64,000 bases of DNA, taken from positions 106,208,001-106,272,000 of the forward strand of contig NC_086107.1 of the NCBI RefSeq assembly GCF_963921235.1. The letters run 5' to 3'. This stretch comes from Mobula hypostoma. Lineage: Eukaryota. This document shows, in pieces, positions 12,581-44,480 of the stretch (position 1 is its first letter; each line of letters opens with the position of its first letter). The translations under genes and the position numbers were made by a program. The notes beneath the pieces are model-generated. The model made no database searches. It was not told the origin of the DNA and worked only from the letters and a program-made list of their open reading frames with translations.

Positions 12581-12798
12581 AAACACAAAATACTCTGTAG
12601 ATGCTGGGGTCAAAGCAACACGCACAACACGCTGGAGGAACTCAACAGGTCGGGCAGCATCAGTGGAAACGAACGGTCAACGTTTCGGGCTGAGACGTTG
12701 ATTGTCAGTCCTGACGAAGGGTCTCGGCCCAAAACGTTGACTATTCGTTTCCACGGATGCTGCCCGACCTGCTGAGTTCCTCCAGCGTGTTGTGTGTG
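12581..12798. mobile_element. Palindromic Penelope-derived non-autonomous element with a hammerhead motif
   Basis: Near-perfect inverted arms of about 85 bp. Flanked by the direct repeat TTACTTTGAACATT (12567-12580 and 12799-12812). Confidence 0.75.
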
Positions 12799-12849
12799 TT
12801 ACTTTGAACATTGAATCTCGTACCATCTTATCAAAAAATCTCAATGGAT

Positions 12850-13300
12850 AAAAGCATGCAGGCATGGTCAAGAGGCTCAGTTGTTCAGACCAAACATCAG
12901 AATGAGGAAGAAATGTGATCTAACTGTGGAATGATTGTTGGTGCCAGATGGGGTGGTTTGTGTATCTCAAAAACTGCCGATCTCCTGGGATATTCATGCA
13001 CAACAGTCTCGAGGGTTTACAGAGAAAAACAAAAAACATCCAGTGAGTGGCAGCTCTGTGGGTGAAAATGCCTTGTTAAAGGGAGAGGTCAGAGGAGAAT
13101 GGCCAGACTGGTTGAAGCTGACAGGAAGGCGACAGTAACTCAAATAACCACGTGTTACAACAGTGGCGTGCAAAAGAGCATCTTTAAATGCACAACACTT
13201 AGAATTTTGAAGTGGACAGGCTACAGCAGCAGAATACCAAAAGCATACACTCAGGGTCCTCTTTGTTAGATAAGGAAGGAACCCAATAAAGTGGCTACTG
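12850..13300 (+). mobile_element. Tc1-family non-autonomous deletion derivative
   Basis: Decayed transposase N-terminus (MGKKCDL...GMIVGAR..G.SISETADLLGFS) and TIR remnant AATAAAGTGGC.ACTGA. Confidence 0.8.
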
Positions 13301-14251
13301 ATTGTTTGACTGCTATTTCTGATAGTTGCCCCATTTGACTTGGCTCATTGTTCAGCAAAGCCGTCATTCCCACTGAGACAGAAATGCACAGATTAAGAAA
13401 GCTCTGTTCAACATGCTTCTCTTTGCCTCTATGTAATATAGACTTGCTAACCAGGTCTAAATTATCATCACTGCTTTTACACATCTTGGCAAACTTCCCA
13501 GCAAACCTGCTCTTTGACTTCCTTCTCACTGGCTGGAAGCCTACAGAAAAGTTTCCAGTATTGTAACGAAGCTTCTCTTGAGCTTGAAATCTAGACAGAC
13601 TCTGTCCTTGATCTCCCTCACTCTCCAGCCCTGTATTAATTCAATAGTTCCATTTCATATCAGAGAATGTGTCCAATATACAGTATGAAATTCTTGTTCT
13701 TCTCAGACATCCAGGGAAACAGAAGGGTTCCCCAAAGAATGAGTGACAGTAAAAATGTTCGAACCCCAAAGTCCCCTCACTCCCCCTCCCACGCACAAGC
13801 AGCAGCAAAGCATTGACCCCCCCGACACCTACTACAGCAAAAGCACCAGTACCCTCCACCCACCAAGCAAGCAATAGCAAAGCCCCCAAGAAAGACCACG
13901 ATAGGCAGTACGACAAAAACTAATCGTTCACCCGACAATTTGACATACCGCAGGCGCTCTCTCTCTCTCTCTCCCTAAATACTGAGCAGAGAGGTATCAC
14001 CCAGCGAGGGGGGAGACATATTTATCGTAATCAACCCTTCCCTTCCACCCCTTATTTCTTGAACACCTTCAGTCTAGGAATACTTAGAACCCACTCCTAT
14101 CCCTTTCTTGAGACAAGTCTCCACCTTTCCAACAACTTCTTTATTATTTCTTAGCCTTTCTAATTTTTCTAAATCTTTTATTTTAGTGATTGAACTTGAC
14201 ACAGACCCTTCTGGCCCAACAAGCCCCCACTGTCCAATTAACCTACTATCG

Positions 14252-14760
14252 ACAGTTCTGTGCAAAAGTTTTAGACACATATGTACAGCTAGGGTGTCTA
14301 AAACTTTTGCACAGTACTGTAGTAACTTTATGTATTGCACTGTACTGTTGCTTCAAAAGAAATAATTTCATGATATATGTGAGTGACGATAAGCCTGATT
14401 CCGATATGGGTCTCTATTGTGGACTGAGAGCGGGAAGGGGGCAGGGAGAGGGGAATCATTGTTGGGAAAAAGGGAAGGGAGAGGGGAGGTAGTGGGAAGC
14501 GCCAGAGAGACATTCTGTAATGATCAATAAACCAATCATTTGGAATCAAATGACCTTGCCTGGAGTCTCAGGGCTGGGTGCGTCTACACCCATGCCACCC
14601 CCCTGCCCCAGCAGTCCTCTGCCACCTACCCCACACCCCTCCCTCGACGCACCACCCTCGCCATTCCCAACATCCTGTGCTCCCGCTAGAATTACAAACT
14701 CGCTCTACGCTCCATGTTGACAAATACAATACTGCGCAGAAGTCTTCGGCATCCTTGCTA
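14252..14760. mobile_element. Repeat carrying a Tc1-like terminal palindrome; related copies at about 15685-16230 and 16406-16478
   Basis: CAGT(A/T)CTGTGCAAAAGTTTTAGACAC ... GTGTCTAAAACTTTTGCACAGTACTG hairpin. The body recurs in inverted form near 15690-16210. Confidence 0.6.
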
Positions 14761-16479
14761 TGCACATGTAAAAGTTCTGAGCATGCTACATTGGCACTGG
14801 AAGCATTGTGGCACGCGTGGGCAGCCCCCAGCACGTACTCAGATTATTAAGGCAAACAACGCATTTCGCGGTATGTTTCAATGTACATCTGATGAATATA
14901 ACTCATTTCTTTCTTAACCTATACATCTTTGGACTGTGGGAGGAAACCAGAGCACCCGGAGGAAACCCACGTGGTCACAGGGAGAACGTACAAACTCCTT
15001 ACAGGCAGCAGCAGAACTGAATCTGCGTCACCGTGACCGTAATATCATTACATTATTCGCCACGTTACCATGACAGCCTTGTTTGAAGACTTGCTATTTC
15101 TCATACAGAGAGTCATTGAATCATACGTTCCTTTGGCCCACAACGTCTGCCCCCTGCCATCGAAAACCCATTGAAATGAGCAAGAAATGATCTGCCGGAG
15201 GAACTCAGCAGGTTGAGCAGAGAACAACAGGAATTCTGCAGATGCTGGAAATTCAAGCAACATACATCAAAGTTGCTGGTGAACGCAGCAGGCCAAGCAG
15301 CATCTATAGGAAGAGGTGCAGTCGACGAACTTTGCAGGGGTTGGACTCAAAGCACCAACAATCTCTTCCCTCTCGAGATGCTGCTCGACCCACGAGTCCC
15401 TCCGGCAGATTGCTTGCTGTTCCAGTTCTGAGCCGCGACGGTCTCCTGTGTCCCTGTTTTACATGAACCCCATTTTACGATCCCCATGTTCCCATCAGCT
15501 CCCCAGATTCTATCCCTCACCTACACCATAGGAGCAATGTACAGTGGCCAATTAACCTCCCAGCCGCAGTCTTTGGAATCTGGGAGGAAACCAGAGCATA
15601 CAGAGGAGGCCGTGCAGTCACAGGGAAAATCCCACACAATCAGAGATCAGGAGAGAAATTGGGCCACTGTGGTGACTTGAAAGAGGTGCACAAAAGTCTC
15701 AGGCCCATACAGTATATATAGCCAGGGTGCTTCAGATTTGCACAGTACTGTATTTCTCAACGTGCAGCGGAGAGCGAGTTTGTAATTCTGGAGGGAGCAC
15801 AGGATGTTGGGAGTGCCAGGGTGGAGTGCTGTGGGAGGGGTGTAGGCCAGGTGGCACAGAAGGAGTGCCAGGGCTGGGGTGACACAAGTGCAGACACACC
15901 CAGCCCTGAGACACCGGGCAAGGTCACTTGATTCCAAACAATTGCTTATTTGTTCGGCCCGATACGTCGACTGTTTACTCTTTTCCATAGATGCTGCCTG
16001 GCCTGCTGAGTTCCTCCAGCATTTTCTGTGCGTTGCTTGGATTTCCAGCATCTGCAGATTTTCTCCTGTTTGTGATTGGATTAAAGAATGTCTCCCTGCT
16101 TCCCACTCCCTCCTTCTCCCTTCCCCTTTTCCCAACCATGATTCCCTTCTCCCTGCCCCTTTCCCACTCTCAGTCTACAAAAGAGACACTTATCAGAATC
16201 AGCTTTATCATCACTCACATGCGTCATAAAATGTGCTTACTTTTGCAGCCACAGTTAAGCAGAGTCTGTGGGAGGGAAATAATGGTTCACATTGGGTTGA
16301 AGCCCAGCATGAGAACTCTTCAAGGGTTGGACTCAAAACATCAACAATCTCTTCCCTCTCTAGATGCTGCTCGACCTATGTGCAGAGCAATACATAAAAT
16401 TACTCCAGTCCTGTGCAAAAGCCTTAGGCTCCCTAGCTATATACTGTATATGTTCCTAAGACATTTGCACAGTTCTGTA

Positions 16480-17225
16480 TATGTTTAAGAGAGGCATAGA
16501 GAGTGGACAGGCAGCAGCCTTTCCCAGGGCAGCAATGGCCAATATCATAGGACATGCATTTAGCATGAGAGGAGGAAAGTTTAGCTGAGATGTATTCAAC
16601 ACAGAAAGCGGTGGGTAGCTGGAATGCACTGCCGGTGTTGATGATAGAGCCTAATACAATAGGGACATTTAAAAAACTCTTTGGCACAGGGATGAAAGAA
16701 AAATGGAGGGTTATGGGCAGTGTAGGAGAGAGGGTTGGATTGATTGTGGAGTATGTTTATATGGGTCGGCAGAACGTTGTGGGCCGAAGGGCCTGTACTG
16801 TGCTGGTGCTGTCCTATGTTCAATAGAATATAGAATGTTACAGCACAGTACAGGCCCTTCAGTCCACAATGTGGTACTGAGATTTTAGTCCAATCTAAGA
16901 TCAATCTACCCATCCCTCCTGCATAGCCCTCCATCTTTCTACCACCCATGGGCCTGTTTAAGAGTTTCTTAAATGCCCCAATGTATCTGCTCCTACCACC
17001 ACCCTTGGCAGAGGTTTCCAAGCACCCACCAGTCTCTGCATCAAAAGTGTACCACTGACGTTCCCCCCTAAACTTCATGCCCCCTCGTATTAGTCATTTC
17101 CACCCTGGGAAAAAGTCTCCAGACATTCACCTGATCCATGCCTCTTATCATCTTGTAGACCTCTATCAAGTCACCTCTCATCCTCCTTCACTCCAAAGAG
17201 AAACGCCCTAGTTTGCTCAACCTAA
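16480..17225. mobile_element. Two CR1 3' fragments, tail-to-tail (plus 16480-16820, minus 16830-17225)
   Basis: WNALP/FKKL motifs and GGGCCGAAGGGCCTGTACTGTGCTG 3' ends on opposite strands. Confidence 0.75.
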
Positions 17226-18544
17226 CCTATCTATATCCCAGATTTTTTTCTTGCACCGCTGACCTCCTTTTTAATATTATCTTCCTGTGCCCAAACCCCA
17301 GTATTAGTTGGGACCACACCACAGCATAACAAAAACTCACGCTTTGCCAAGATGCAAACCATCCGGTGTGTATAGATCCCTGAACTGATCCCGATATCCC
17401 TGGAGTCTGAATCTCACCGGGACCACCTTGCCAGCCAGGGATTTATTTGTGCCATCTCCTGTTCCTATATTCTCCAGGGCGCAATCCTCTGATTACTCCC
17501 TTTCATGCCCTGTCACCTTAATCTCTTTCTTAACTCCTTCTAATCTATCTGCGGTACATCGTCCTTCTTCCAACTTATCTCATTGCTACTGATATGGACA
17601 GTCACCTCTGGAGAACAAGAGACCGCAGATGCCGGAACCTGAAGCAAGGAAAAACAAATTCCTGGAGGAAGTCAACGAGCCAGGGAGTATCTGTGGAGGG
17701 CAATGGGCTGCCGAAGTGTAGGATCGAGACCCTTCATCAGGTCTCAGCCCAGGGCGTCGATTGCCTGTTCTCTCCTCCGTAGATGCTGCCTGACTCGCTG
17801 ATTTCCTACAGCCTTTGGTGTGTGTTGCTCAAGATCTGCAGAATCCAGTGTCTTTGACGTTTCATCCATCATCTGGACTGGCTTCATCTCAGTCCAGGTG
17901 AGGGGTCGCGACCCGAAGCATCAAGTGCCCACTTCCCCACACAGATGCTGCCTGGCCTGCTGAGAGACAGAGGGGATAGAGCTACTCTAAAGAGGGGTGG
18001 GGAAATAGCTCGCAAGAGACCGGTGGATCCAGGAGGGGTTAGGGGACGGAAAGAAGGAGAACAGAAAAAAAACGACCGAGGTTGGGAGGTGATGGGTGGA
18101 CATGACAAAGGGCTGAAGATAGTGAAATCCAATAGGAAAGGAAGATGGAGCATGAACCAAATAAGGGGAGTGAGGAGGGCAGATGGGAACAGTGGGGTGA
18201 GGGGTCCTAGTCCTACTGGGAGGATGGTGTGGCTAATGAGCAAGTGGGTAGAGGACAGTAAGTAAACAGAGAGATGGGGGTCTGAGGGTGGGGTCAGTGT
18301 CAGATGCTGGGTAGATTATGAGGTGAGAGAAAGGGGATTGGGGAAACAAGTAATGTCACTATGTACTGGATTAAATCACAGAAAAAATATACTTTAAACA
18401 CTATTATTATTGGATTACTTGCTGTCTATAATGCCGCAGTTTAAACCAAAGCTTGTTTGTACTTTTCAGGGATCTGTTTCTCATGTCCCGCAAACACCTA
18501 TAATTTCTGACTGAAGGTAAAACTTGTAGCAATGATTACCAGAG

Positions 18545-18816: not shown

Positions 18817-18929
18817 CGATAAGTGACAATATCACGTTTGTTTTTCTCTTTCCAGATTGCGTGCGGCATGCTGCGTTGAATGTTTCCCCGGAGTAATGAC
18901 ATCATCTGTTGTTAAATCAGCAAACAACA

Positions 18930-19260: not shown

Positions 19261-20928
19261 CCATCTTAATTCAGTCTCTTACAGTGAACCCACCCCAGAC
19301 CTACTTCATCCTCTCCCAGCCCCCTGCCTCAGCTGTACACTCCCACTCCACCCGAGCTGAGATTTGTTCTCTCTCCGTTTCTGTGCAGATGTCTCTAGAT
19401 ACTGAAGACCAAAATGATCCCACCATGGAATCTCCCGGGAACTGTGTCCCTCTGGTTCTCTTATGTAGCCATCAGAGCCAGTGTATCAGTCAGAACTTCA
19501 ATCAAAGATATGACTTAACTTCAAATTACATCAGTCTAACAGATGTTTTAAAAACAGTGCCTCTCTGATGCAGACTAGATGCTCAATGCAGAGTGGAAAA
19601 GATTCAGTGTTGAGCTGTAGCCAAGTCTGGAGAGGAGTCCATTACAGAATGAGTGATCTGTGAGTTCAAATCCCATCAATCCAGTTGGGAAATGCAAGCA
19701 AGCTGAATTTTAGAAAACTTCTTTCCAAATAGAGCTGGTTTTAGTAACATGTACTTGGAGATCAGCAGTCTCTTGTTAAAAACTTATTTCTTGTATCTTC
19801 TAACATCTCCACCACCCATCAGCCTCACACCTCAAACCTCATAGAATCATAGAACACTACAGCACAAAGACAGGCCCTTCAGCCCATCTAGTCTGTACAG
19901 AATTATATTCTGCCTAGTCTCATCAGCCTGCACCTGGACCTTAGCCCTTCATACCCCTGCCATCCATGTATCTATCCAAATTTCTCATAAATGTAGGAAA
20001 AGCCTGTTTGTCTTTACCCTATCTATACTTCACTATAATTCTGTAACCCACGAATCTCCCCCTCATTTTCCTATACTCCAGAGAATAAAGTCCTAACCTT
20101 TTCAAACTTCCTCTACAACTTAATTCCTGACCACATCCTCGTAAGTTTTCTCTGCACTCTTTCAACCTTATCGATATCTTTCCTGTAGGTGGATAACCAG
20201 AGCTGCACACAAGACTCCAAATTTGGCTTCACCAAAGTCTTCCCCCAGCACTGGATGCAGGCCTCTGGATCTGAGCAGCTGCACCTCTGTGTAGCTCATG
20301 GAATATTGGCTGAAGGAAACCTGCCCTCCTCTCTCTGGCAGGGCTATTTATTTTAATTTTAATTAGCGATACAGCACGGAGAAGGCCCTTCTGGCCCTTC
20401 AAGTCACGTCACCCCAGCAACCCCCCAATTAACCCTAAACTAATCACGGGACAATTTACAATGACCAATTAACCTACCCGGTATGTCTAAGGAAAAGGGT
20501 ACCCTCCCCCCTCCCCATCTTCTTACTCTGACACCTCATCTTTTTTTCTCCAGTCCTGCTGAAGGGTCTCGGCCCGAAATGTCAGCTGTTCACTCTTTTC
20601 CCTAGATGTTGCCCGGCCTGCTGAGTTCCTCCAGCATTTTGTGTGTGTTACTTGAATATTGAAAGGCCTATTGAAAGTGCATGTGGAGAGGATGGTTCTA
20701 TTAGTGGGAGAGTCTTGGACCAGAGGCACAGCCTCAGAATACGAGCTCTCCTTTAAAACGGAGATACAGCGGAAATTCTTTAGCCACAGGGTGATGATTC
20801 TGTGGAATTCATTGCCATAGATGGCTGTGGAGGCCAAATCATTGGGTATATTTAAAGTGGAGGTTGACGGATTCTTAATTAGTAAGGACATCAAAGGTTA
20901 TGGGGAGAAGGCAGGAGAATGGGGTTGA

Positions 20929-21977: not shown

Positions 21978-22788
21978 TTCAGTGGCCACTTTATTAGCGA
22001 CCTCCTGTACCTAATAAAATGATCTCAGCATGTATATTCATGATCTTCTGCTGCTGTAGCCCATCCACTTCAAGGTTCGAGGTATTGTGCTCCAAGTTTC
22101 ACCAATTGCCTGGTGTTCCTCTCTCCCCTCCTCCCCCCCACCTTTCTAATCTATGCCTCAGCCTTTTTTCTCCAGTCCTGCCGAAGGGTTTCAGCCCGAA
22201 ATGTCAACTGTACTTTCTTCCTGAGATGCTGCCTGGCCTGCTGAGTTCCTTCAGTATTTTGTGTGTGTGTGTGTGTGTTGTGCATTCAGGGATGGTTTTC
22301 TGCACACCACTGTTGTAACGTGAGGTTGTTTGAGTTACTGTCGCCTTCCTGTCAGCCTGAACCAGTCTGGTCGTTCTCCTCTGACCTCTCCCATGAACAA
22401 GGTCTTTTCACCCACAGAACTGTCACTTACCAGAGTCTTTTTTTCTGCACCAGTCTCTGTAAACTCCAGAGACTGTTGTGCATGAAAAGCCCAGGAGATC
22501 AACAGTTTCTGAGATACGCAAACCACCCCGTCTGGCACCGGACATGAAAATCCCAGGAGACCAGCAGTTTCTGAGATACTCAAATCATCCCATCAGGCAC
22601 CAACAATCATTCCACAGTCAAAATCATTTAGATCACATTCCTTCCCCATGCTGATGTTTGGTCTGAAGAACAGCTGAACCTCGTGACCATGTCTGCATGC
22701 TTTTATGCATGGAGTTGCTGCCACGTGATTGGCTGATTAGATATTTTCATTAACGAGCAGGTGTATTTAATAAAGAGGCCACTAAGTC
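21978..22788 (-). mobile_element. Tc1-family deletion derivative with an internal Penelope fragment (about 22090-22270)
   Basis: TIR CAGTGGCCACTTTATTA and a SISETAGLLGFS remnant on the minus strand. Confidence 0.8.
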
Positions 22789-24160: not shown

Positions 24161-24782
24161 ATAACATTGAAGGAGGCCCCCTTCAGCCCCTCTAGGCTAT
24201 ACTAACTCAACCTCCAATCACACCACAGTTGCTCTTCTGGTTTTGACAATAATGGGAGAGTGAGCATCGTGCTGGCAGGAGAGCTAGGAAACAGAGAATG
24301 CTGGAAAACCTCAGCAGGTCAGGTAGCATCGGTGGAAACAGAAACTATTAATATTTCTGCAACGTTACCTGCTTCTCTTTCCACGGATGCTGACTGACCT
24401 GCTGAGTGTTTCCAGCAGTCACCATTTTCTGTTTTTACATCAGATTGGCTCAGTTTACTTGTATACGTTTCTGAGACAGGTACGGCCAGCAAACATTAAG
24501 AGCTCATTACAACAGACCGAGAAGCTGAATGTGATGGTAACTGCCACCATGCACCACTTCAACTCATCCTATCACAGACATTCCTTTTATTCTAGCTATC
24601 CCCCTGATTTGCTAAAGACTAATTTGCACCTCTCTCTTTCCAAGTTCTGATAACGGATCACAGACCTGATATTTTAACTGTTCCTCTTTCTACAGATGCT
24701 GTCCAACCTGCTGAGTATTTCCAGCATTTTCTGTATTTTTTTCAGGTTTCCAACATCTGCAGGATGCTCTATTTTCATTTAC

Positions 24783-25165: not shown

Positions 25166-25659
25166 GTTATAACAGAGCCTACATTACCTATTGATGTTCA
25201 ACAGCCTCTCGTTGACGTCTAGTTTTATCCATCTGGTTTCATGCTTACACCCTGATGTCCTACAGCTTCTCAGAACCAAGTATAGACTCTTGTTGCAAGG
25301 TCAAGGCAAAATAGGGCAAGAGAGCTCCCCCAGCTCAGGTTTAAAGTGGAGAATAGTAGTTGTAGGGTGCCAGGAGATCCCTGAATTAAGTCGAAACATA
25401 CAGTGAAATGTGTTGTTTCCATGATGTGCTGGAGGCAGCCCAAAAGTGCTGCCGCAGGTTCCAGCTCCAACATTTCATGCCCACAAGGTTCAGCAGGACA
25501 AGACAGGCAGCAACAAGAACAACAATATCAAAACAGACCCCAGGACTTGCCGATCATGGCCTTTAGGGCTCGGCTTCTAGACTCGCATGGACGTCCAAAC
25601 AGTTTGAACAAAAGAACGCCAAGCCCCTTCACTCCATCCACGACACGCGGAATTTCCCA

Positions 25660-26245
25660 GTGCCCGCCCATCTTAATTCCAGCCCGATTCCCACTCAGAC
25701 ATGTCAGTCCATGGCCTCTTCTGCTTCCATGATGGGGCCACTCTCAGGTTGGGGAAGAAGCCGGAATTCCGTCTGCATTGCTTCCAACCTTTTGGCGTCA
25801 GCACCGATTTCTCCAACTTCCAGTAATTTCTCCACTTCCCCTTTCACTCTTTCTCCATTCCCCTTTCTGGCTTCCCTCTTACCCCTTCTCTTCTCCTCAC
25901 CTTCCTTCCACTTCTCCTTAGTGCCCCTCCTCCTTCCTTTTCTCCCATGGTCCACTTTCCTCTTCGATCCGATTCCTCCTTCTTCAGCCCTTTACCCTTT
26001 CCACCTATTGCCTCCCAGCTTCTCACTTCATCCTCCCTCCCCTAACCACCTACCTTCCCCCTCACCTGGCTTCACCGATCACTTCCACCTTCCCCACACA
26101 TCCCCTCCCCACCTGCTTATTCTGGCTTCTTCCCCCTTCCGCTCCAGCCCCGATGAGGGGTCTCAGCCCAAAATGTTGGCTCTTTATTCCTTTCCATTGA
26201 TGCTGCCTGACCTGTCGAGTTCCTCCAGTGTTCTGTGTGTGTTAC
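25660..26245 (+). mobile_element. Penelope-like element 3' fragment
   Basis: HLNSSPI...DMSVHGL GIY-YIG C-terminal remnant, a pyrimidine-rich UTR, and a degenerate hammerhead near 26144. Confidence 0.7.
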
Positions 26246-26806
26246 CAAGGAGGACAAGTTCTTTTGTTCAGGCCAATGGACTGGTCACTGTCACTCGTGG
26301 AAGGCTTAACCAGAATGCACGCAGATTGAAATGATTAACAGGATGTGTTCGCCCAGTCAGCGCTGTATGATTCATGGAGCTGTGATTAACTCTGACAAAC
26401 CAGCGGCTGATGGTGCTCTTTTGGCTGCGATCCCTTTCTGTTAGAAATTTCAATCACCATTACACACCCAGAGTGGGTTGAAAGGCCAAACGAACAGCAG
26501 GTCCCAGTGGCCTTCTGAGCAAACTAATTCCATCAAGCCATACGCTCTCCGCTGCCTGCTTTACTGAATGGGTTTGTTGTGTGACTGCCTGTCTCCAGCT
26601 AACCAACAACCGCCCTCTGCCTGTTTCTGTTGTGCTGCTTAGACGGTCAGGGACCACTTCACTAGCTACACCTGCTCGCCAATGTAAGTGTCTAATCAGC
26701 CAATCATGTGACAACAACTCAATGCATAAAAGCATGCAGGCACAGTCAAGAGGTTCAGTTGTTGTTCTGATCAAACATCAGAATGGGGAAGAAATGTGAT
26801 CTAAGT

Positions 26807-27557
26807 CAGGGGTCCCCAACCTTTTTTGCACTGTGGACCAGTTTAATATTGACAATATTCTTGCGGACCGGCCGACCAGGGGGGTGGGTGTTCAAGTAGG
26901 GTTAAACTCACCCCAACATGTCTTTTACAGTTAGGGTTGCCAACTTTCTCACTCCCAAATAAGGGACAAAAGTAGCAGTCAAATCCCAAGACACTTGTGT
27001 TTACCCCAGGAAAGGCTACCATGACCATGAAGCCTTGCGCGGGCACCTGTGTGCGCATGCGCGTACGTGCCAATTTTTTTCCCACAAATCAGTTTTGCCT
27101 TAATCTTCCTGACTACACTGTACATACATTATTTCTACATTATATAGGCTGTGTATTTATCTATCATTCCTGCTTTCACTATATGTTAGTGTTATTTTAG
27201 GTTTTATGTGTTATTTGGTATGATTTGGTAGGTTATTTTTTGGGTCTGGGAACGCTCAAAAATTTTTCCCATATAAATTAATGGTAATTGCTTCTTCGCT
27301 TTACGCCATTTCAGCACAAAAGGTTTCATAGGAATGTTCTACCTTAGCTGGAGAAATACGGGACAAGGGCGGTCCCGTATGGGACAAACCAATATAGCCC
27401 AATATACGAGATATCCCGGCAAATACGGGACAGTTGGCAACCCTATGTTCAAGTTCAACAGTGCGTGACAGGGAATGAGGAAAGATGCAGCTGACTCATA
27501 TCGTTTCCTCACGGACCGGTAGCACATGCTTTGCGGCCCGGTGGTTGGGGACTGCTG
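26807..27557. mobile_element. hAT (Charlie-like) non-autonomous element
   Basis: TIRs CAGGGGTCCCCAACC / GGTTGGGGACTGCTG and a perfect 8-bp TSD ATCTAAGT (26799-26806, 27558-27565). Confidence 0.9.
26897..27445. mobile_element. Nested hAT (Blackjack-like TAGGGTTGCCA termini)
   Basis: Perfect 8-bp TSD TGTTCAAG (26889-26896, 27446-27453). 14-bp inverted repeat TAGGGTTGCCAACT at 26932-26945 and 27432-27445. Confidence 0.85.
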
Positions 27558-28299
27558 ATCTAAGTGACCTTGACCATGGAAACTGTTGATTGACTTGAAT
27601 TTTCATGCACAACAGCCTCTAGAGTTACAGAGAATAGCATGAAAAACAAAACCAAAAAAAAACAACATTTTTTGGTGCCAGATAGGGTGGAACAATTGTT
27701 GGTGCCAGACGGGGTGGTTTGAGTATTTCAGAAACTGCTGACCTTTTGAGACTTTCACACACAACAGAATCTACAGAGAATGGTGAGAAAACAAAAAAAA
27801 CATCCAGTGAGCGGCAGTTCTGTGGGCGAAAACACCTTGTTAGTGAGAGAGGTCAGAGGAGAATGGCCAGACCTATTCAAGCTGACAGGAAGGCGACAGT
27901 AACTCAGATAACCTCACGATACAACAGTGGTGTGCAGGAGAGCATCTCTGAATGTACAACATATTGAACATTGAAGTGGATGGGCTACAGCAGCAGACGA
28001 CCACACTGGGCTCCACTCCTGGACCTAATAAAATGGCCACTGAGTGCACATTCAGTTACTGAGGTCCATGCCCATAGATCCCCCCAAAGTTCTCGTGCAC
28101 GTTGATAGGGTTGTTGATAAGGCACATGGTGTGTTGGCCTTCATTAGAGGATGGGGGCAGAGTTCAAAAGCCACAGAGTAATGTTATAGCTCTATAAAAC
28201 GCAAACACGAGGACATCTGCAGAATCTGGAATTTCAAGCAACACACATAAAAGTTGCCGGTGAACACAGCAGGCCAGGCAGCATCTCTAGGAAGAAGTA

Positions 28300-28336
28300 C
28301 AGTCAACGTTTCAGGCTGAGACCCTTCATCAGGACT
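28300..28336 (-). ncRNA. Minimal type I hammerhead ribozyme (Penelope-associated)
   Basis: Minus strand reads AGUC-CUGAUGA-A-GGGUCUCAGCCU-GAAAC-GUU-GACUG: core boxes, stem II and stem I AGUC/GACU. Confidence 0.75.
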
Positions 28337-29019
28337 AACTGAAAGAAGAGCTAGTAAGGGATTTGAAAGTGGGAGGGGGAGGGGGAGATCCGAAATGATA
28401 GGAGAAGACAGGAGGGGGAGGGATGGAGCCAAGAGCTGGACAGTTGATTGGCAAAGGGGATATGAGAGGATCATGGGACGCGAGGCCGAGGGAGAAAGAA
28501 AGGGGGAGGGGGAAAGCCCAGAGGATGGGCAATAACGATGGGGTACGAGGGGGAGGTGGGGCATTAACGGAAGTTAGAGAAGTCAATGTTCATGCCATCA
28601 GGTTGGAGGCTACCCAGACAGAACATAAGGTGTTGTCTATAGGAAGAAGTACAGTCAACGTTTCGGGCCGAGACCCTTCTATAGGAAGAGGTACAGTCGA
28701 CATTTCGGGCCGAGACCCTTATAACACCTTATATTCCATCTGGGTAGCCTCCAACCTGCTGGCATGAACACTGACTTCTCTAACTTCTGTTAATGCCCCA
28801 CCTCCCCCTTGTACCCCATCCATTATTGCCCATCCTCTGGATTCCCCCCACCACTTTCTTTCTCCCTCAGCCTCCCGTCCCATGATCCTCTCATATCCCT
28901 TTTGCCAATCAACTGTCCAGCTCTTGGCTCCATCCCTCCCCCTCCTGTCTTCTCCTATCATTTCGGATCTCCCCCTCCCCCTCCCACTTTCAAATCTCTC
29001 ACTAGCTCTTCTTTCAGTT

Positions 29020-29056
29020 ACTCCTGACGAAGGGTCTCAGCCCGAAACGTCGACTG
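29020..29056 (+). ncRNA. Minimal type I hammerhead ribozyme (Penelope-associated)
   Basis: ACUC-CUGACGA-A-GGGUCUCAGCCC-GAAAC-GUC-GACUG. Core intact with a GUC triplet; one mismatch in stem I. Confidence 0.75.
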
Positions 29057-30712
29057 TACCTCTTCCTAGAGATGCTGCCTGGCCTGCTGCGTTCACCAGC
29101 AAATTTTATGTGTGTAGCTCTATAAAACCCTGGTTAGACCACACTTGAAATATTGTGTTCAGTTCTGTTCACCTCATTGTAGGAAGGATTCAGAAGCTTT
29201 AGGGAGGCTGCAGAGGAGACTTACCAGGATTCTACCTGGATTAAAGAGCACGTCTTAGGATAATAGGGTGAGTGAGCTAAAACTTTTCTCTCTAAAGTGA
29301 AGGAGGATGAGAGGTGACTTGATTGAGATGTACCAAATATTAGTAAATATAGATCAAGTGGGCAGACAAATATTTTTTCTCTCCCAGGGTGCAAATGACT
29401 AATATGAAAGAGCATAATTTTAAGGTGATTTGAGGAAATTACAGGGAGGATTGACAGAGATAAGGTTTTTACACAGAGGTGTGTGGAGAGTACTGCCAGT
29501 GGTGATGGTAGAGGCAGATGCATTAGGGACATTTTCGAGCCTGTTAGATGGGCAGCTGGATGATAGAAAAATGGGGAAGGGAAGGGTCCTGCCGAAGGGT
29601 TTTGCCCTGAAACGTTGACTGTACTTTGTCCGTAGATGCTGCCTGGCCTGCTGAGTTCCTCCAGCACTTTGTGTGTGTCGCTTTGGATTTCCGGCATCTG
29701 CGGATTTTCTCTTGTTGGTGAGGGAAGGGTTAGATTGATCTCAGAGTAGGTTAAAGATCGGCACAACATCCTGGGCCAAAGGGCCTGTACTGCGCTTACT
29801 GTACTGTGTGCCATGTTGCCATGGCATTGGTACATTTGATTTCAGGAGTGAGTTCCGTCTTTAAAGTTCAAGCCTCTCTTAAATAATACATGACAGGATG
29901 CCAAATAAAGATTTTAAATCACCTGTAGAGATCATTTCCTCTTTCAACCCAGTGCTACAATCCTGGACACCTTTGGTGGCTGGCTCTGAGCTTCAATAAC
30001 CCAATGCACATTCACCCTGTGGATGCCTTGTGATTCTGTCCAGCCTGCCGTGAGGGACTCGTGTCCTGAGTCACCAGAGCTTTTCCCCCACTGATGAGGG
30101 GCACAAGTCAGGGGTATAATGGAACATGCTCCCTCTCCTTGTGTACAGCTGCCGCAGGAAACTCAGTATGGCCTGGACAGAGAGTCCACCTGGCTTGCAC
30201 CCATCCTCAGATGTGACAGCATCCCTCCTGAAGGATGATCTCAGCTCAGCCTCAGGGCCTGAAACGACAGGGTCCTCGGAGACTGTGGTTGTTCATGATG
30301 GCTCCCCCATGTTTTGACGGTCAAAACGAGCATAGGAGACATTGATGTCATTTGGAAGTGAAGCCTTGTTGCCACCTATGTCGCTTGGTTTCACTTTGTA
30401 AGGGGTGATAGCATTCAAGCCCTGTCAAGCATCCTTCATTCATTCAAGGTTAGTTTGGAATTGCCCGTGAGATAGCTCTGGTTTCTTCCCACATCCCAAG
30501 TACATGCGGGTTGGTAGATTAATTGGTTAGGGTAAAACACCTCTAGTGTGGGTAGATGGTGGGAGATGTGTGGGAAAATAGGCTGTAAAAAAATAGGTGG
30601 GGGTGGAATTTGGTTTTTCATTGATTAAACTGTAATTCTTTGTTCTACTGTGAATGCCTGCTAGAAAATATATCTCAGAGTTGCATATGGTAACATATAG
30701 GTACTTTGAGAA

Positions 30713-31505: not shown

Positions 31506-31529
31506 TTATCAGCAAAAGCTTCCTCCCCT

Positions 31530-31790: not shown

Positions 31791-31829
31791 AATCATAGAA
31801 ATCTACAGCACATTGCAGGCCCTTCAACT

Positions 31830-34864: not shown

Positions 34865-35703
34865 CTAAACATAGATAAAAACATAGAAAATAGGTGCAGG
34901 AGTAGGCCATTCGGCCCTTCGAGCCTGCCACCGCCATTCAGTATGATCATGGCTGATCATCCAACTCAGAACTCTGTACCAGCCTTCCCCCCATACCCCC
35001 GATCCCTTTAGCCACAAGGGCGACATCTAACTCCCTCTTAAATATAGCCAGTGAACTGGCCTCAACTGTTTCCTGTGGCAGAGAATTCCACAGATTCACC
35101 ACTCTCTGTGTGAAGAAGTTTTTCCTAATCTTGGTCCTAAAAGGCTTCCCCTTTATCCTCAAACTGTGACCCCTCGTTCTGGACTTCCCCAACATCGGGA
35201 ACCTTCCTGCATCTAGGCTGTCCAATCCCTTTAGGATTTTATACGTTTCAATAAGATCCTCCCTCAATCTTCTAAATTCCAACCAGTATAAGCCTAGTTG
35301 ATCCAGTCTTTCATCATATGAAAGTCCTGCCATCCCAGGAATCAATCTGGTGAACCTTCTTTGTACTCCCTCTATGGCAAGGATGTCTTTCCTCAGATTA
35401 GGGGACCAAAACTGCACACAATACTCCAGGTGTGGTCTCACCAAGGCCTTGTACAACTGCAGTAGTACCTCCCTGCTCCTGTACCCGAATCCTCTTGCTA
35501 TGAGTGCCAGCATACCATTCGCCTTTTTCACCGCCTGCTGTACCTGCATGCCCACTTTCAATGACAGGTGTATAATGACACCCAGGTCTCGTTGCACCTC
35601 CCCTTTTCCTAATCGGCCACCATTCAGATAATAATCTGTTTTCCTGTCCTTGCCACCAAAGTGGATAACCTTACATTTATTCACATTAAATTGCATCTGT
35701 CAT
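34865..35703 (-). mobile_element. Relatively young CR1 LINE 3' fragment
   Basis: 249-aa ORF MQFNVNKCKVIHFG...LYKALVRPHLEYCVQFWSP...WNSLP. Its 3' end is nearly identical to 62890-63203. Confidence 0.95.
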
Positions 35704-36774
35704 GAATGACTATGTAGGCCATTTTACATTGACATCAGCACAGACTCGGGCACTGGAAACTTTCTCCAGCTGGCTCTATCTCTCAAAGTTCTCCCCACAA
35801 ACATCGGGGGTTTGTTCTTCAAACACTCTCACAGACTCTTAACCCTGTCAGAGTCTCACCTTCAAGGTCTCAGAACTCTTTAATGTATTCTACTGATAGG
35901 ACAGACCAACCAGAGAGCCATGTTGGCAAACAATTGAAAGTAATGGCCTTGGACTCGTAATGTTGTCTCAAGACCCAATGGATCAAAAGTAGAAACAGAC
36001 AAAGAAGTCTTCCACAGGTCACCATTTACCGTCCTCCCTGAGCTGAGGAATCATTATCCAACCTGTTCAGAGTTCAGAGTAATTTTGTTATCGAAGTTTG
36101 TTCATTCTTTACCGAGTCGTACGATGTGGGCAATCATGGCTTTTCCACGACCATGATTGTTCTTGGCAAATTTTTCGACAGAAGTGGTTTTGCCATCGCC
36201 TTCTTCTGGGCAGTGTCTTTACAAGATGGGTGACCCCAGCCATTATCAATACTCTACAGAGATTGTCTGCCTGGCGTCAGTCGTCGCATAACCAGGACTT
36301 GTGATCTGCACCGGCTGCTCATACGACCATCCATCACCTAGTTCCATGGCTTCACGTGACCCTGATCGAGTTGGGGGGGTAGGGTGGGGCTAAGCAGGTG
36401 TACCCTCTTGCCCAAGGGTGACCTGCAGGCTTGTGGAGGGAAGGAGTGCCTTGCACCTCCTTTGGTAGAGGCAGAGTAGAGACATATTTCAAAACTGCCA
36501 CCCCATTATTAAGCTACATACCATATACTACCCTGTGATTTATTTTCTTGTGGGCATTCACAGTAAATACAAAGAAACACAATTAAATCATTGAAAAATT
36601 ACACACAAAGTCGTTGGACACACTCTACACAGAGACTGATATCTATCACCAAAGGTGGTGTGGTTTCAGCACCATGGATGTCTTAAACGATGTGGCTGTC
36701 ATGGTGCCTTTTCAGCAGGAGTACGAGATTCAATGCAAAGACTAAACCCAGCTGACATCATTTTGATCATTCTC

Positions 36775-37350
36775 ATAAACACAACGAGATTCTGCAGATG
36801 CCTGAAATCTTCAGCAACACTCACAGAATGCTGGAGGAACCCTGCAGCTCAGGCAGCACCTACAAAGGGGAGTAAACAGTAGGTGTTTCAGGCTGAGACG
36901 GTTCATCGGGACTGAAAAGAAAGGGGAGCCGAAGCCAGAAAAATAAGGTGACGGGAGGAGAAGGAGTACAAGCTGGCGGGTGATAGGTGACACCAGGTGG
37001 GTGGGTGGGGGACGGACCTGAAATAAGAAGGTAGGAGGGGATAGCTGGAGGAAGTAAAGCGCTGAACGAGAAGGAATCTAAGAGGAGAGGCCAGTTGATA
37101 ACAGAAGAAAGGGAAGGAGGAGGGGCACCAGAGAGAGGTAACAGGCAGGTGAGGAGAGAAGGGGTGAGAGGGTAAACAGAATGGGGAGTGAAGAAGGAGA
37201 GAATGAGGGAGGGAGGAGAAATGACCAGAAACTAGAGGAATTAACATTCATGTAATCAGGTTGGAGGCTACCCAGACAGAATATACGGTGCTGCTCCTCT
37301 AACTTAAATTTGGCCTTATAGTGGCAGTAGAGGAGGCAATGGATGGACAT
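36775..37350 (-). mobile_element. Penelope-like element 3' fragment
   Basis: KLEEQHRIFCLGSLQPDYMNVNSS and a degenerate hammerhead at about 36877-36913. Confidence 0.8.
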
Positions 37351-38559
37351 TCACCAGTCTACCAGCTACAAAGACATTTGTATTAGCTGAAGTCACCCTA
37401 TACAGTCTTAAAGGTGTAACTCCCCTATTCAAACTGAGGACAGTCTCCACGTTATGTAGTACCACTATCACACTGAGTTGAATGAATTCAGCAGCTCAAA
37501 ACTGGGCGTCCATGAGGTACTGTGTAGTTTCTGCAGCACCACAATACATGTAGCCTGAGACCTCTATTAGTAAGACTAAAGATTAGCTTTATTTGTCACA
37601 TATACTTTGAAAAATCAAAACTTACCGTGAAATGTATCGTTTGTGTTAACAACCGATATAGTCCGATAACGTGCTGGGGGCAGCCCGCAGGCATCGGCAT
37701 GCTTCCAATGCCAACGTGGCATGCCCACAACTTCCTAACCCTAACCCGTATGTCTTAGCAATGTGGAAACCAGAGAGCCCATAAGAAACCATGTAGTCAC
37801 TGGGAGATCAGGCAAACTCTTTACAGACAGTGGCAGCAATTTACCTCGAGCTCAACTGCTGGCACTGCAAAGTGTTGAGCTAATTGTTCCAACCCCGTAT
37901 ATCTCTGATACTATCAATATAATCAGGCCAAGATTCCAACCCTGGTTTAATAAAGAATGTTGAAGAACTTGCAGTGAGTAAAGCCAGGCCCTACCTAATA
38001 ATGGAGCCCCTAACCAATGAGGGTACAACACACGGGGTATTGACAAAGTAACCAAGAAAAGTAAACATGCAATAGACAAAGCTAAGAGATCCTATAGTCA
38101 ACAGATCAGGAAAAAAAAGATCAATAGCTGTCCACTCAACCTATGCCTTTGTCATCTTCTACATTTCTATTGAGTCATCTGTCATCCTCCTTCACTCCAA
38201 CGGGAAAAGCCAAAGATCTCTCAACCTATCCTCGTAAGACATGCTACCCAATCGGGGCAGTGACCTAGTGAATCTCCTCTACACCCTCTCTAAAGCTTCC
38301 ACATCCTTCCCGTAATGATGTGACCACAACAGAACACGATATTCTAATCAGGGTTTTATTGAACTGCAGTGTAATCTCTCTGCTTCACTTCATAAAACCC
38401 TAGATCCACTCATGAATTCCAGAAGTGTTATCAGGACCGTGGTATTAAGGAGCCCAGAGGATCTGAAGTCCACAATAATCAGGAGCACTAATTCTACAAT
38501 GGGTGAAATCATACCAAGAATTGAAGATGAGGCAACACTTAACCTCTGAATCTGCTGGA

Positions 38560-39190
38560 GTTGTCCATTGTGTCCAGACCTCCTGATGCATCCCCCTCTA
38601 CATTGGTGAGACCCATCGTAAATTGGAGGGCTGCTTTGTCGAGCAACTCTGCACCATCCACCACAAGTGGGACTTCCCATTGGCCAAACATTTTAATTCT
38701 GATTCCTATTCCTGTTCTGACATGTCAATCCATGACTTCCTCTTGTGCCAGGTTAAAGCCACCCTCAGGGGGGAGGAGCAACACCTTATATTCTGTCTGG
38801 GTACCCTCCAAAGTGATGGCATGAATATCGATTTCTCCTTCCAGTAAACAAATTTCCCCGCCCCTCCTCTATTCCCCAGTCTGAACTTTCACTGTATCTC
38901 ACCTGCCTATTACTTCCTCTTCATCCTTCCTTTTCTCCTATTGTCCACTCTCCTTTCCTATCAGATTCCTTCCTCTCCAGTCCTTGATCTTTCCCACCCA
39001 CCTGGCTTCACCTATCACCTATCACCTTCCAGCTAGCCTCTTTCTCCTCCCCCCTCACCTTTTTATTCAAGCATCTTCCGACTTCCTTCTCAGTCCCAGT
39101 GAGGGGCCTCAACCCGAAACATTGACTGCTTACTCTTTTCCATAGATGCTGCCTAACCTGCTGAGTTCCTCCAGCTTTTTTGTGTGGTGC
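38560..39190 (+). mobile_element. Penelope-like element, GIY-YIG endonuclease end plus 3' UTR
   Basis: C...LYIGETHRK...AKHFNS...EEQHLIFCLGTLQSDGMNIDFS. Confidence 0.85.
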
Positions 39191-40310
39191 TAGCTAGAAG
39201 GTGATAGGTGAAGCCAAATGGGAGGGAAAGGTAAAAGCTGGAGAAGAAAGAATCTGATTGGGGAGGAGAATGGACCATAGGAGAAGGGGAAGAAGGGGAC
39301 CCGGTGATAGGTAGGTGAGGAGAGGTAAAAGGTCAGAGTGGGGAACAGAAGAAGAGGGGAGGGATAAAAGATTTTCCTGAAGGAGAAATTAATATTTATG
39401 CCATCAGGTAGGAGCTTTCCCAGATGGAATATAAGGTGTTGCCTCTCCACCCTGAAGGTAGTCTCAGCTTGGCACAAGAGCAGGTCATGGGCCAACATCT
39501 CAGAATGGGAATGGGAATTGGAATTAAAATGTTTGGCCATCGGGAAGTTCTGCATTTGATGGATGGAGCGGAGTTGTTTGATGAAGCGGTCCCCCAATTT
39601 ACGACAGGTCTCACCAATGTAGAGAAGGCTGCATCGGGGGCACCAGACACATTAGATGACCCCAGCAGGTTCACAGGTGAAGTGTTCCCTCACCTGGAAG
39701 GACTATTTGGGGGTCCTGAATGCAGGTGAGGGAGGAGATGAACGGGCAGGTGTGGTACTTGGGCCACTTGCAGGGGTAAGTGCTGGGAGGGAGGTTAGTG
39801 GGGTGGGTCAAACGGATAAGGGAATTGCAGAGGGAGCAACCCCTGTGAAAAGCAGAGGGTGGGGTGGGGGGGGGAGGTAAAATACGTTTAGTGGTAGTAT
39901 CCTTTTGGAGATTCCAAATGTTGCAGAAGATGATGTGTTGGATGTAGAGGCTCATGGGGTAAGGACAAGAGGAACTCAATCCCTGTTACGGTGGCAGGAA
40001 GATGGATGAGCACAGATGTTTGAGAAATGGAGAAGAAGATGAGAAGCGGGTCAGAACAGCATCAATAGTGGAGGAAGGGAAACCCCATTCTTTGAAGAAG
40101 GAAGACATCTCTGATATCCTGGAAAGGAAGGCAGCATTCTGGGGACAGATGCAGTGGAGGCAAAGGAAATGAGAAATAGGAATAGCATTTTTGTAGTAGG
40201 CATGCTGGGAAGAGGTATCGTCAAGATAACCTTGGGAATCGGTGGGTTTATAAAAGATGTCGGTTGTCAGTTTGTCTCCAGAGATGGAGTCAGATTGAGA
40301 AAGGGAAGCT
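39190..40310 (-). mobile_element. Penelope-like element fragment (RT-thumb end, Cys linker, GIY-YIG), tail-to-tail with the previous copy
   Basis: LQKDTTTKRILP...TYPCKWPKYHTCPFISS and GDRFIKQLRSI...AKHFNS...QHLIFHLGKLLPDGINI. Confidence 0.85.
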
Positions 40311-40829
40311 GCCAGTGGTTTTGATCTTTAGAGCATATTTCCTGCTTGAAAAAGGAATCTCCCTTTTATTCTGAATGCAGTGATCAAAGGAAGGCATTCA
40401 GACCTGGGTACTGATTAGCTTACTGAGGTTCTGCTCCCTGTGATTGTCAGGGGATCGTTCCAATATGTATGGGATTGTTCTGTCCAGCCATCTGTCCTTT
40501 AGCATTCGCCCATTGTCCTTTCACCTATATATCAAGAGCAATACTCACAAAATGCTGGAGGAACTCAACAGGTCCCCGATGAAGGGTCTCAACCCAAAAC
40601 ACCGACTGCTAATTCCCCTCCGTAAATGCTGTCTGAACTGCTGAGTTCCTCCAGCATTTTGTGTGTGTTGCTCAGGATTTCCAGCATCTGCAGGATCTCT
40701 TCAAAATTCACAGTAAATTAATTACCCAAGTACGTATGTCAACATGCAGAAAACAAAGAAATATAACAGAGTCAAAGGGAAAAATGCACACAGACTGACA
40801 AACCACCAATGTACAAAAGTCAAACTGTG

Positions 40830-42008: not shown

Positions 42009-42029
42009 CTACACGGTAACACCACTCAC

Positions 42030-42665
42030 CTCCAGATTTTCAATGCTGTCCTTCAGGGAGTGGATGGTCTGCTCCAGATCTAACACTGTCCAGTCAGATT
42101 CCTCGGTCCCATCTTCCAAACTGTTTCTCCCAAGGTCCCATGCGTATTCCTCGGGATTATTTTGAAAGAAGCTCAGTTCCTGGCCATTCTCACATTGGCT
42201 GAGTTTGCTGGTCAGTTCCCTGATGGTCTGCTGGTCGCTGGCGATCTGTTTCTCCTGCTGGATGACCATCTGGCGGAGGTGGTCAGCCGTACTCCTCAGC
42301 AGCAGCAGATCCTCCCGGATCGAAGGGGAAGGGCAATCCTGAGCCAAAGGCAGACAGAGGAAGCGACTGGCAGTGCCAATAAATGAATCCGAACCATATC
42401 CAAGCCTAGAGCTCACAGAAGCTTTGCCAGCACCAGGATCAATGGCAGTGCCTTGGCTTGGGGTAGGTGCGGGAATGCCGGCTCTCCCTGTATCAGCACC
42501 GCGGGCAGCTCCAGCGCCGCTCTGGGTTGCAAGCAATGCTCCGGCTTCATTTTCAGCACCAGGGACAGATCCCGGAGAACCAGGGGCGATGCTTGCAATG
42601 ATGCAGATCACTGCACCTAGAAATGCAAGCATCCCTGCCCCTAGCAGGATGGTTAGATACTTCAG
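42030..42665 (-). CDS. NPTXR: Neuronal pentraxin receptor, coding exon 1 (212 codons, CUG start, phase-0 donor)
   Basis: (CTG)KYLTILLGAGMLAFLGAVICIIAS...SRFLCLPLAQDCP...REDLLLLRSTADHLRQ..QQEKQIASDQQTIRELTSKLSQCE...LEQTIHSLKDSIENLE matches the mammalian NPTXR N-terminus (MKFLAVLLAAGMLAFLGAVICIIAS...SRFLCTPL...DQDTIRELTGKLGRCE). Donor GAG/GTGAGT at 42030/42029. Confidence 0.95.
42492..42512 (+). promoter_or_regulatory. RE1/NRSE (REST site), exonic
   Basis: ATCAGCACC-GC-GGGCAG-CTCC versus consensus TTCAGCACCnnGGACAGCGCC. Confidence 0.7.
42552..42572 (+). promoter_or_regulatory. RE1/NRSE (REST site), exonic
   Basis: TTCAGCACC-AG-GGACAG-ATCC: both half-site cores are perfect, with the canonical 2-bp spacer. 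Confidence 0.85.
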
Positions 42666-42795
42666 GGTGACGGAGTTTGTGCAACAAGAACCCGAGAAAG
42701 AATCAAGTTAAAATTAAAAACAGAAATCCGCAGCTTCGGAGACCGAGGTGGGATCCTGCCGGATAGCAAGTGCAGTGGCAATCCCTTACAATCAT

Positions 42796-42824
42796 CTGTC
42801 AATCACAGCCCCTCGAAGACGTCA
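42796..42824 (-). promoter_or_regulatory. Candidate NPTXR proximal motifs: PBX-MEIS/PREP decamer and a CRE-like site
   Basis: TGATTGACAG at 42805-42796 and TGACGTCT at 42824-42817, within a CpG-rich repeat-free region. Confidence 0.5.
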
Positions 42825-44174
42825 TTGATTCCCGGAGGAGCGACCCACATTCTTAAAAGGGAATTCTTTTCGGTTAACAATAATCCTTAAACGGGCAACG
42901 CATCTCGGGTCCAATTGTCTGGGGAAAAAAATGCGTGAGTGTATAGCATTTCGGCAACATGTTTCAAAATGAAATTTGCATTGGAAACAGGCTCCAGGAG
43001 GAATTGGAGGGAAACGGCCTGCGGCTGAAAGGGTGGTTAGGAAGACGAGGGGCGGTAGGAAGCTCGTTAGGAGCATAAACACCCTGCTCGCAGTTGTCAT
43101 GCATAATAAATCTGACACCGTGCTGAAAACTCTATAATTCTGTGAATGATAACCTCTCTGTTTCTGTTGTTTACTGAAAAAAAACCAAAAGGTCCGCGAC
43201 TTCTGTCTGCTGGGAAATCACGAACAGGACCGTGTACTATTTATCTCCAAATAATTATTTGAATTTCCACAATACACCACCTCAGGGATATTTTGTAACA
43301 ACATACAGTGTGTTATTTTATTTCTAAAACGGAACATGAACTCCCCAAACATTATTCCATTCATTACAGATTTAATATTTATGATGGAAGTGTTTTGCTG
43401 TGGGATTTAATTTTCTTTCAGAAAAGGCTCATGTAGCATAGAGAAACAGAGAATCCTGGAGAACATTAGCAAGGCAGGCAGGAACAAGAAGAGTGAATCT
43501 AGATTAGTGTTTCATGTCAGCCCGCACAGATCAAAGGTCATTGACCGGAAACTTCTGGCCTCATTCTCTCTCCACAGGAGCCGCCTGGCTTGATGAGTGT
43601 CACGGCCGTTTTCTGCTCCATTTCCAAAGTCCAATACTTGTAGCATGGAGATTTTGATCGGGAAATAGACAAGAGGTTATGGTAAAACTCAGCTCAGTTC
43701 CCCATCTGAGGTGAATAGAGCGAGGGATAGCACTCAAAATGAGTGGAATAAGGAGACACCTATGTCCCAAGCAAAGCCAGCTACCACTGGGAGGAATTAA
43801 ATTAAAAAAAACCCGAATACCCATGGTGGAAGACAGTGTAGTGAAGAGGTTTCTAGGGATTCTTTTAAGGCAGAAAATACAGGGGGTTTCGAGAGGCTGT
43901 TCAACTCTTTTCCCTCATTGGCGGACAAATCTTCCAGTCGGAATGTGGAGATCCATCCTGCTTTCAGGTGGGGCGCTATAGTTTGCCTGTTACTTCCTGA
44001 GACAAGCATGGGAGAGTACTGCTCTACTTAATGTGTGTCCTTATAAGCACTAGAGTGCACATGAGTGTGTGTGTTGATTAATCAGTGCAATGAATGGATT
44101 AGCATGCCTACCAGCTGCAATGCCTGTGGATGAGTTTGCCGCCTAAGCATGAGTGTGAGCAATGCGTATGATTA

Positions 44175-44480
44175 TGGACACAAGAGATCCTGCAGATGCT
44201 GGAAATCTGGAGCAATGGGCACAAAACGCTGGTGGAGCTCCGCAGCCAGACTGCATCTATGGAAAGGAATAAACAGTCAATGTTTTGGGCCAAGACCTTT
44301 CATCAGGACTGGAAAGAAAGGGGGAGGTGCCCAAATATGCAAGCATAGGAGGACAAGCTAGAAGGTGAAAGGCAAAGCAAGATGGGTGGGGGAGGGGTGA
44401 AGTGTGAAGCTGGGAGGTGATAAGTGGAAAATTCAAAGGGCTGGAGAAGAAGGAATCTGATAGGAGAGGAGAGAGTGAGA
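44175..44480 (-). mobile_element. Penelope-like 3' fragment
   Basis: Same terminal sequence as the other copies. Hammerhead at about 44274-44311 with GAAA decayed to AAAA. Confidence 0.75.

Follow-up and report, generated by a model that had tools for sequence, protein, structure and literature searches.

Hammerhead motifs at the 3' ends of a Penelope-like element

In a 64,000-nt stretch of the Mobula hypostoma genome (assembly GCF_963921235.1, contig NC_086107.1, positions 106,208,001 to 106,272,000 of the forward strand; hereafter the window, with positions counted from its first letter), a hammerhead ribozyme motif occurs in 15 copies within 32 kb, a very high local density. Far from standing alone as ribozymes, these motifs form the 3' ends of a retrotransposon, a Penelope-like element (PLE) of Neptune type. 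We consider it highly probable (about 0.9) that they are minimal type I hammerheads in the pseudo-long terminal repeat (pseudo-LTR) of a highly amplified Neptune-type PLE, and that the copies in the window are inert relics.

All 12 positions at which a first-pass annotation of this DNA had placed the motif do carry it, with start offsets of 0-2 nt (verified starts: 12706, 17890, 20551, 22173, 26145, 28300-, 29019, 29584, 36877-, 39091, 40571 and 44274-, where the trailing minus marks the minus strand). A search with a 25-letter core pattern, allowing 3 or fewer mismatches, found 6 matches where 0.00 were expected, and none of 100 shuffles produced any. A profile built from the window copies gave 26 matches in the window at E<1e-4, while on the reversed window, used as a control, it gave only 2 weak matches (E 1.8 and 2.1). 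The span from C3 to H17 is present in 15 profile pieces, three of them beyond the earlier list (17708-17745 (-), about 24642-24679 (+) and 28652-28689 (-)); one 5'-truncated arm without box 1 and one weak, diverged match at 43511 were left out of the 15.

The majority motif has the anatomy first described for it: a 5-bp stem I, CUGANGA, one extra base, a 4-bp stem II with a tetraloop, GAAA and a palindromic ACGU. Both boxes, A15.1-U16.1 and H17 are all present in this majority form, and all occur together in 2/15 individual copies. Paired cells make up 91% of stem II and 76% of stem I (14 of 15 copies), and stem II is closed by G10.1-C11.1, a feature of PLE hammerheads. The extra base between positions 9 and 10.1 is found in 15/15 copies, as an A in 11. 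An ACGU palindrome without helix III is the majority form, exact in 5/15 copies and CpG-decayed in most others. An Rfam scan of the window at E<=1 returned no hammerhead family and 9 matches, all to microRNA-precursor models on inverted repeats; since the motif lacks helix III, this silence was not counted against it. Metagenome contigs and viral contigs, scanned with degenerate versions of the motif, gave 0 and 0 matches. The recurring motif is real, and its identification as a minimal type I hammerhead motif is supported.

The first-pass annotation had linked such motifs to PLEs, and coding remnants of reverse transcriptase (RT) and GIY-YIG endonuclease do adjoin the copies. A Mobula PLE protein (P0001) was found via the open reading frame (ORF) remnant at 39190-39651; its own GIY-YIG match is weak and below the Pfam cut-off. 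In a tblastn search P0001 gave 7 window matches with E<1e-6, of which 5 lie immediately upstream of a same-strand motif and the remaining 2 form a broken RT-thumb/linker/endonuclease remnant (39211-40303, 1.1 kb, E 3e-81). This remnant aligns with residues 59-416 of P0001, covering RT together with GIY-YIG at the C-terminal end. Among 8 long relatives of P0001 scanned at E<=0.01, RVT_1 was found in 7/8 and GIY-YIG in 8/8. A CX2-5CxxC linker between RT and endonuclease is present in 102/111 scorable proteins, P0001 included, and is decayed in the window copy. This linker is given as a mark of Neptune and Nematis (PMC8557442), of which Neptune alone is included in the groups recorded from vertebrates (bioRxiv 10.64898/2026.07.22.740005). 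The provisional assignment to Neptune follows from the linker together with the reported vertebrate distribution.

The order of parts in the element is endonuclease end, CT-rich untranslated region (UTR), motif, 15-nt linker and a tail of ~100 nt. In five copies the motif lies in sense orientation downstream of PLE ORF remnants, the location of a pseudo-LTR. PLE pieces amount to 6,163 bases, 11% of the window outside its satellite. On a single 331-bp stretch around the 28300 copy, two DNA runs yielded 65,182 and 49,921 contigs; their recruitment is biased to the reference copy, and their depth is no measure of copy number.

Core decay and conservation

All 11 core bases are retained only in 2/15 copies, 28300- and 29019+, which had been singled out earlier as keeping both catalytic boxes and do keep them. 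A strict descriptor picked out these two and no others, and had no match in 100 Markov controls. The other 13/15 copies carry core changes, so that the suggestion of a family of working ribozymes is not supported for the window. The motif contains 4 CpG dinucleotides, three of them at C11.1-G12, C15.2-G16.2 and C17-G1.1. CpG cells are changed in 43/120 cases (39 of deamination type), compared to 58/441 non-CpG motif cells (p 8e-8). CpG decay is the chief wear on the motif copies. Among DNA-run contigs on the 28300 copy, 9/9 listed motif differences likewise fall on CpG columns, C7-G8 included.

Non-CpG mismatch is 13% in the motif, compared to 30% in the linker (p 5e-7) and 36% upstream (p 5e-11), which suggests constraint on the source elements. 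In run X1, the tallied changes at G5, A6, A9, G10.1, A13, A14 and A15.1 stay below 3%, and the tail shows several subfamily differences (recruitment here too favours the reference copy). The expected excess of core conservation is therefore found relative to the linker and the upstream UTR, and fails relative to the neighbouring tail: motif and tail are conserved together.

Several results weigh against the motifs being ribozymes in the pseudo-LTR of an amplified PLE. The core is no better conserved than the 50 nt of tail beside it (19/150 vs 100/670, p 0.52). Covariation is not above that of shuffles, with 1 two-sided change and 393/500 shuffles as high, in a sample of 14 decayed paralogues with low power. 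No full-length or tandem element occurs in the window, and thus the source element was not seen. In nearest-neighbour energy calculations the majority motif as a monomer takes a rod fold that pairs box 1 with the cleavage site; its active dimer (-19.9 kcal/mol) is less favourable than two monomers (-25.4) or the best dimer (-33.7). The unfavoured active dimer fits the activity reported for this class of hammerhead, which is described as low and dimer-dependent or protein-assisted (PMC4209133; PMC11167929; PMC6765202).

Insertion ends and the state of the template

The 3' ends of the copies form two clusters, near +100 and near +131 counted from C3, ~30 nt apart. In an anole element an optional 30-40-bp tail is reported to mark two RT start sites (PMC11167929), and the two clusters match this optional tail. 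Target duplications of at least 10 nt flank 3/19 loci, compared to 4/300 random pairs. In the head-to-head pairs at 12581-12799 and 28201-29115, both with a target duplication, only one arm has the tail, as in the description of PLEs in PMC8557442. Each target-duplicated head-to-head pair is probably one insertion primed on both strands.

Among the 26 profile pieces, 0/26 have their 5' end at the cleavage site (+29); 16/26 begin between -13 and +25 relative to C3, 2 begin downstream of the cleavage site and 8 extend past the model start. The excess of upstream over downstream ends (16 vs 2, p 5.5e-4) is to be read with the alignment edges being approximate, short pieces harder to detect, and some starts near -12 possibly flanks of other subfamilies. 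The pattern points to uncleaved templates with RT stopping in the hairpin, or to transcripts that start there.

In the mechanism that we propose, reverse transcription would begin at either of two points, ~70 or 100 nt downstream from where the motif cleaves; RT would often halt or switch template in the motif hairpin, giving short copies. Once inserted, these would undergo neutral decay, most rapidly at the CpGs of the core itself. On intact tandem source elements, the motif would most likely cleave slowly as a dimer through its ACGU palindrome, perhaps assisted by an element protein; this dimer or protein step is modelled on published elements.

The pair with intact cores and the host gene

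The ORF at 42030-42632 (-) encodes 201 residues identical to a Mobula hypostoma protein annotated as neuronal pentraxin-2-like, and its other matches are mostly named neuronal pentraxin receptor; we refer to the gene as NPTXR-like. With four query proteins no later exon was found in the window, and a splice donor follows exon 1, so intron 1 runs past position 1 of the window. Consequently 14/15 motif copies lie in intron 1, while the 44274 copy lies upstream of the start codon. The intronic copies show no significant strand bias (4/14 sense, p 0.18). A 19-bp satellite (1-9336; ~490 units, 9.3 kb, strong GC skew, neighbouring repeats 90-92% matching) apparently also lies inside this intron.

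The two copies with fully intact cores are the arms of one insertion (367/395 identical), with a minus arm (28638-28201) that has the tail and a plus arm (28722-29115) that lacks it. The earlier proposals that the 28300 copy is sense to the NPTXR-like pre-mRNA, and that the surrounding inverted repeat could sequester it, both find support, the former in the exon and donor positions and the latter in predicted pairing. In the predicted minus-strand fold, the motif of the 28300 copy pairs at 37 of its 38 bases with the antisense arm (29019-29056), which is transcribed first; ribozyme stem probabilities are 0.0, and a forced ribozyme fold costs 64 kcal/mol. By symmetry, a plus-strand transcript would sequester the 29019 copy likewise. 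Intronic copies could be neutralised in two ways, either as CpG decay erodes the core or as an inverted partner sequesters the motif by pairing.

Plus-strand T>C differences (A>G in element sense) at a frequency of at least 3% occur at 9 and 7 places in two presumed-RNA runs vs 3 and 1 in two DNA runs. At 28288, 28396 and 28399 the family-wide T>C frequency is 3-10% in the presumed-RNA runs vs 0.3-3% in the DNA runs, and one of these sites is in a UAG context. This excess is a weak lead; it may reflect A-to-I editing in inverted pairs of the element, or just expression of different copies. The presumed-RNA runs are contigs from other individuals and cannot reveal RNA ends, strand or level; differences in their depth between the two sides of the cleavage site were not taken as evidence.

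Alternative explanations

According to the published descriptions of PLE ribozymes, their role is unsettled (PMC8557442, PMC11167929), and an explanation that we place somewhat short of even odds is that the motif is carried along with the element, cleavage being dispensable for amplification, and is retained as a pseudo-LTR part with a structural or protein-binding role. The lack of insertions starting at the cleavage site and a core no better conserved than the tail both favour it. It also agrees with the anole PLE, for which ribozyme mutants are reported to have no effect on insertion in vitro and no reads to end at the cleavage site (PMC11167929). Further support comes from three copies with the substitution A6C (20551, 22173 and the insertion at 29588-29720), which look related: outside box 1 and CpGs, the similarity of the trio ranks 1/364 among triples, and 14/286 after allowing for low divergence, and two of the copies are mutual best matches upstream. 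A tree did not resolve the A6C copies as a clade; contigs of the sequencing runs, having been recruited by likeness to a copy of a non-A6C subfamily, are uninformative on this substitution. A6C is probably a real subfamily trait. It is described as a natural variant with low activity (PMC3088659) that is less active in Mg2+ and favours Mn2+ (PMC7151607), and as such reduces activity without abolishing it, which speaks against cleavage being dispensable. So does the majority motif, with no core base lost among subfamilies that differ by 30-36% in their flanks, as well as the 7 non-CpG core positions that show no change of at least 3% in run X1. That a subfamily with an A6C core was amplified, with insertions across the family beginning upstream of the cleavage site and not at it, is a tentative proposal, which we think less likely than not. 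If true genome-wide, it would be a natural experiment in very many copies, indicating that PLEs can do without an efficient ribozyme and use uncleaved RNA for retrotransposition. The substitution U4C (4 copies) was also considered as a subfamily trait and found no support (ranks 182/1001 and 69/715); this change also creates a CpG.

It is very improbable that the copies are a non-autonomous retrozyme multiplying via small circular RNAs. Short solo units do occur (133 bp at 29588), and retrozymes have been reported in one chondrichthyan (bioRxiv 10.64898/2026.07.22.740005), but the window has no head-to-tail array of complete motif units, its sole tandem being two 42-nt halves without box 1; the 5' ends are ragged, and several copies extend into GIY-YIG coding sequence. 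Use of the 28300 copy by the host, as an intronic ribozyme cleaving the NPTXR-like pre-mRNA, is extremely unlikely despite its 11/11 core bases and its sense position in intron 1. Because its motif is predicted to pair with the earlier-transcribed antisense arm, at the energetic penalty given above, cleavage of the host intron is unlikely. Moreover, this copy has no stem III and no intact sense partner in the window, carries G.U at 10.1-11.1 and U17, and may be intact simply through youth, its arms being 93% identical. A PLE hammerhead now present as inert relics remains the reading that we prefer. With many copies, datable subfamilies, core variants and precise junctions, the genome is a resource for asking whether cleavage matters for retrotransposition.

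Individual insertions and other features of the window

The insertions are listed in Table 1. In the pair at 12581-12799, the left arm (minus) begins inside stem II and has a tail, while the right arm (plus) has the motif and no tail. Both arms of the 28201-29115 insertion share one starting point within the endonuclease coding end, and between them (28636-28720) are 2 tandem 42-nt pieces of the motif 3' half, from stem II to linker, which look like the product of repeated template switching at the motif. This insertion apparently landed in a long interspersed nuclear element (LINE) remnant similar to the CR1-like ones described below. At 38515-40303 two element copies meet tail-to-tail at ~39195 (388/505 identical), the minus copy having neither motif nor tail.

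Table 1. Element copies, motif copies and the host exon in the window
Feature	Position	Strand	Details
Head-to-head Penelope-like insertion	12581..12799		13-bp target duplication 12568-12580 / 12800-12812
Motif copy	12706..12743	+	G12A, CpG decay
Motif copy, not in earlier list	17708..17745	-	G12 and A14 changed; head-to-head with plus arm 17740-17845
Motif copy	17890..17927	+	3 core changes
Motif copy	20551..20588	+	A6C; palindrome lost at 15.2
Motif copy	22173..22210	+	A6C; palindrome lost at 15.2
Old, strongly decayed motif copy, not in earlier list	24642..24679	+	
5'-truncated element	25617..26257	+	GIY-YIG C-terminal remnant 25689-25823, CT-rich UTR, motif 26145-26182 (U4C, G12A)
Single head-to-head insertion	28201..29115		13-bp target duplication 28188-28200 / 29116-29128
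Motif copy, 11/11 core bases	28300..28337	-	G.U at 10.1-11.1, U17
Motif 3' half, no box 1	28652..28689	-	in loop of inverted pair; not in earlier list
Motif copy, 11/11 core bases	29019..29056	+	C17; C.C mismatch in stem I; antisense to NPTXR-like gene
133-bp solo insertion	29588..29720	+	starts just before C3; A6C; tail; 10-bp target duplication 29578-29587 / 29721-29730
5'-truncated element	36770..37427	-	GIY-YIG remnant 37350-37228, UTR, motif 36877-36914 (U4C, U16.1C), tail
5'-truncated element	38515..39194	+	GIY-YIG domain remnant 38515-38838, UTR, motif 39091-39128, 3 core changes
Longest coding remnant	39199..40303	-	RT thumb, decayed zinc-finger linker, GIY-YIG; stops and frameshift; stops short of own motif
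Head-to-head pair	40529..40701		motif 40571-40608 (+): U4C, G12A, U16.1C
First coding exon, NPTXR-like neuronal pentraxin gene	42030..42632	-	splice donor ~42029
5'-truncated element	44174..44471	-	upstream of NPTXR-like start codon; motif 44274-44311, G12A

Decayed LINE RT remnants, CR1-like by eye, occur at 55523-57667 (-) (RVT_1 at E 2e-15), 34947-35699 (-) and 52717-53199 (-). Inverted repeats of the miniature inverted-repeat transposable element type, unrelated to the hammerhead family, lie at 14238-14330 and 16780-16866 (both with weak microRNA-model matches) and at 26808-27555 (recognised by eye). A single 979-aa open frame at 58620-61559 (+), with many leucine-rich repeats and a TIR domain, is an intact Toll-like receptor gene.

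Comparison with known systems

Minimal hammerheads on PLEs are already published across animals, fishes included; Cervera and De la Pena (2014, PMC4209133) describe them in pseudo-LTRs of metazoan PLEs, including Xena, Poseidon and Neptune of fishes. The ray motif shares with those described there the type I topology, the short stem I, the extra base between 9 and 10.1, G10.1-C11.1, the palindromic 15.2-16.2 without helix III, and the occurrence mostly as dispersed singles on truncated elements with nearby opposite-strand pairs. It differs from the Schistosoma motifs of that paper, which have a stem II of 7-8 bp, in its 4-bp stem II with tetraloop. Two supplementary files of PMC4209133 contain no shark, skate or ray terms, and our literature search, which lay outside subscription journals and repeat databases, found no description of the motif in cartilaginous fish among the papers listed. 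Like the non-LTR retrozymes of bioRxiv 10.64898/2026.07.22.740005, the ray copies have a type I hammerhead derived from PLE pseudo-LTRs, and the chondrichthyan retrozyme families reported there may be the ray family.

In its coding part the ray element resembles the Neptune PLEs described by Craig et al. (2021, PMC8557442), with RT, a CX2-5CxxC linker and then a C-terminal GIY-YIG; Nematis shares this linker with Neptune. Strong 5' truncation, inverted truncated copies and a 30-40-bp tail at one end only are also as in Neptune, although in the published case the inverted copy adjoins a full element and here both arms are truncated. The PAc Poseidon element of the green anole (Frangieh et al. 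2024, PMC11167929) belongs to another clade, Poseidon having no linker, and its ORF begins within stem II. Like the ray element as reconstructed here, it has a pseudo-LTR hammerhead, two RT start sites and insertion from uncleaved RNA.

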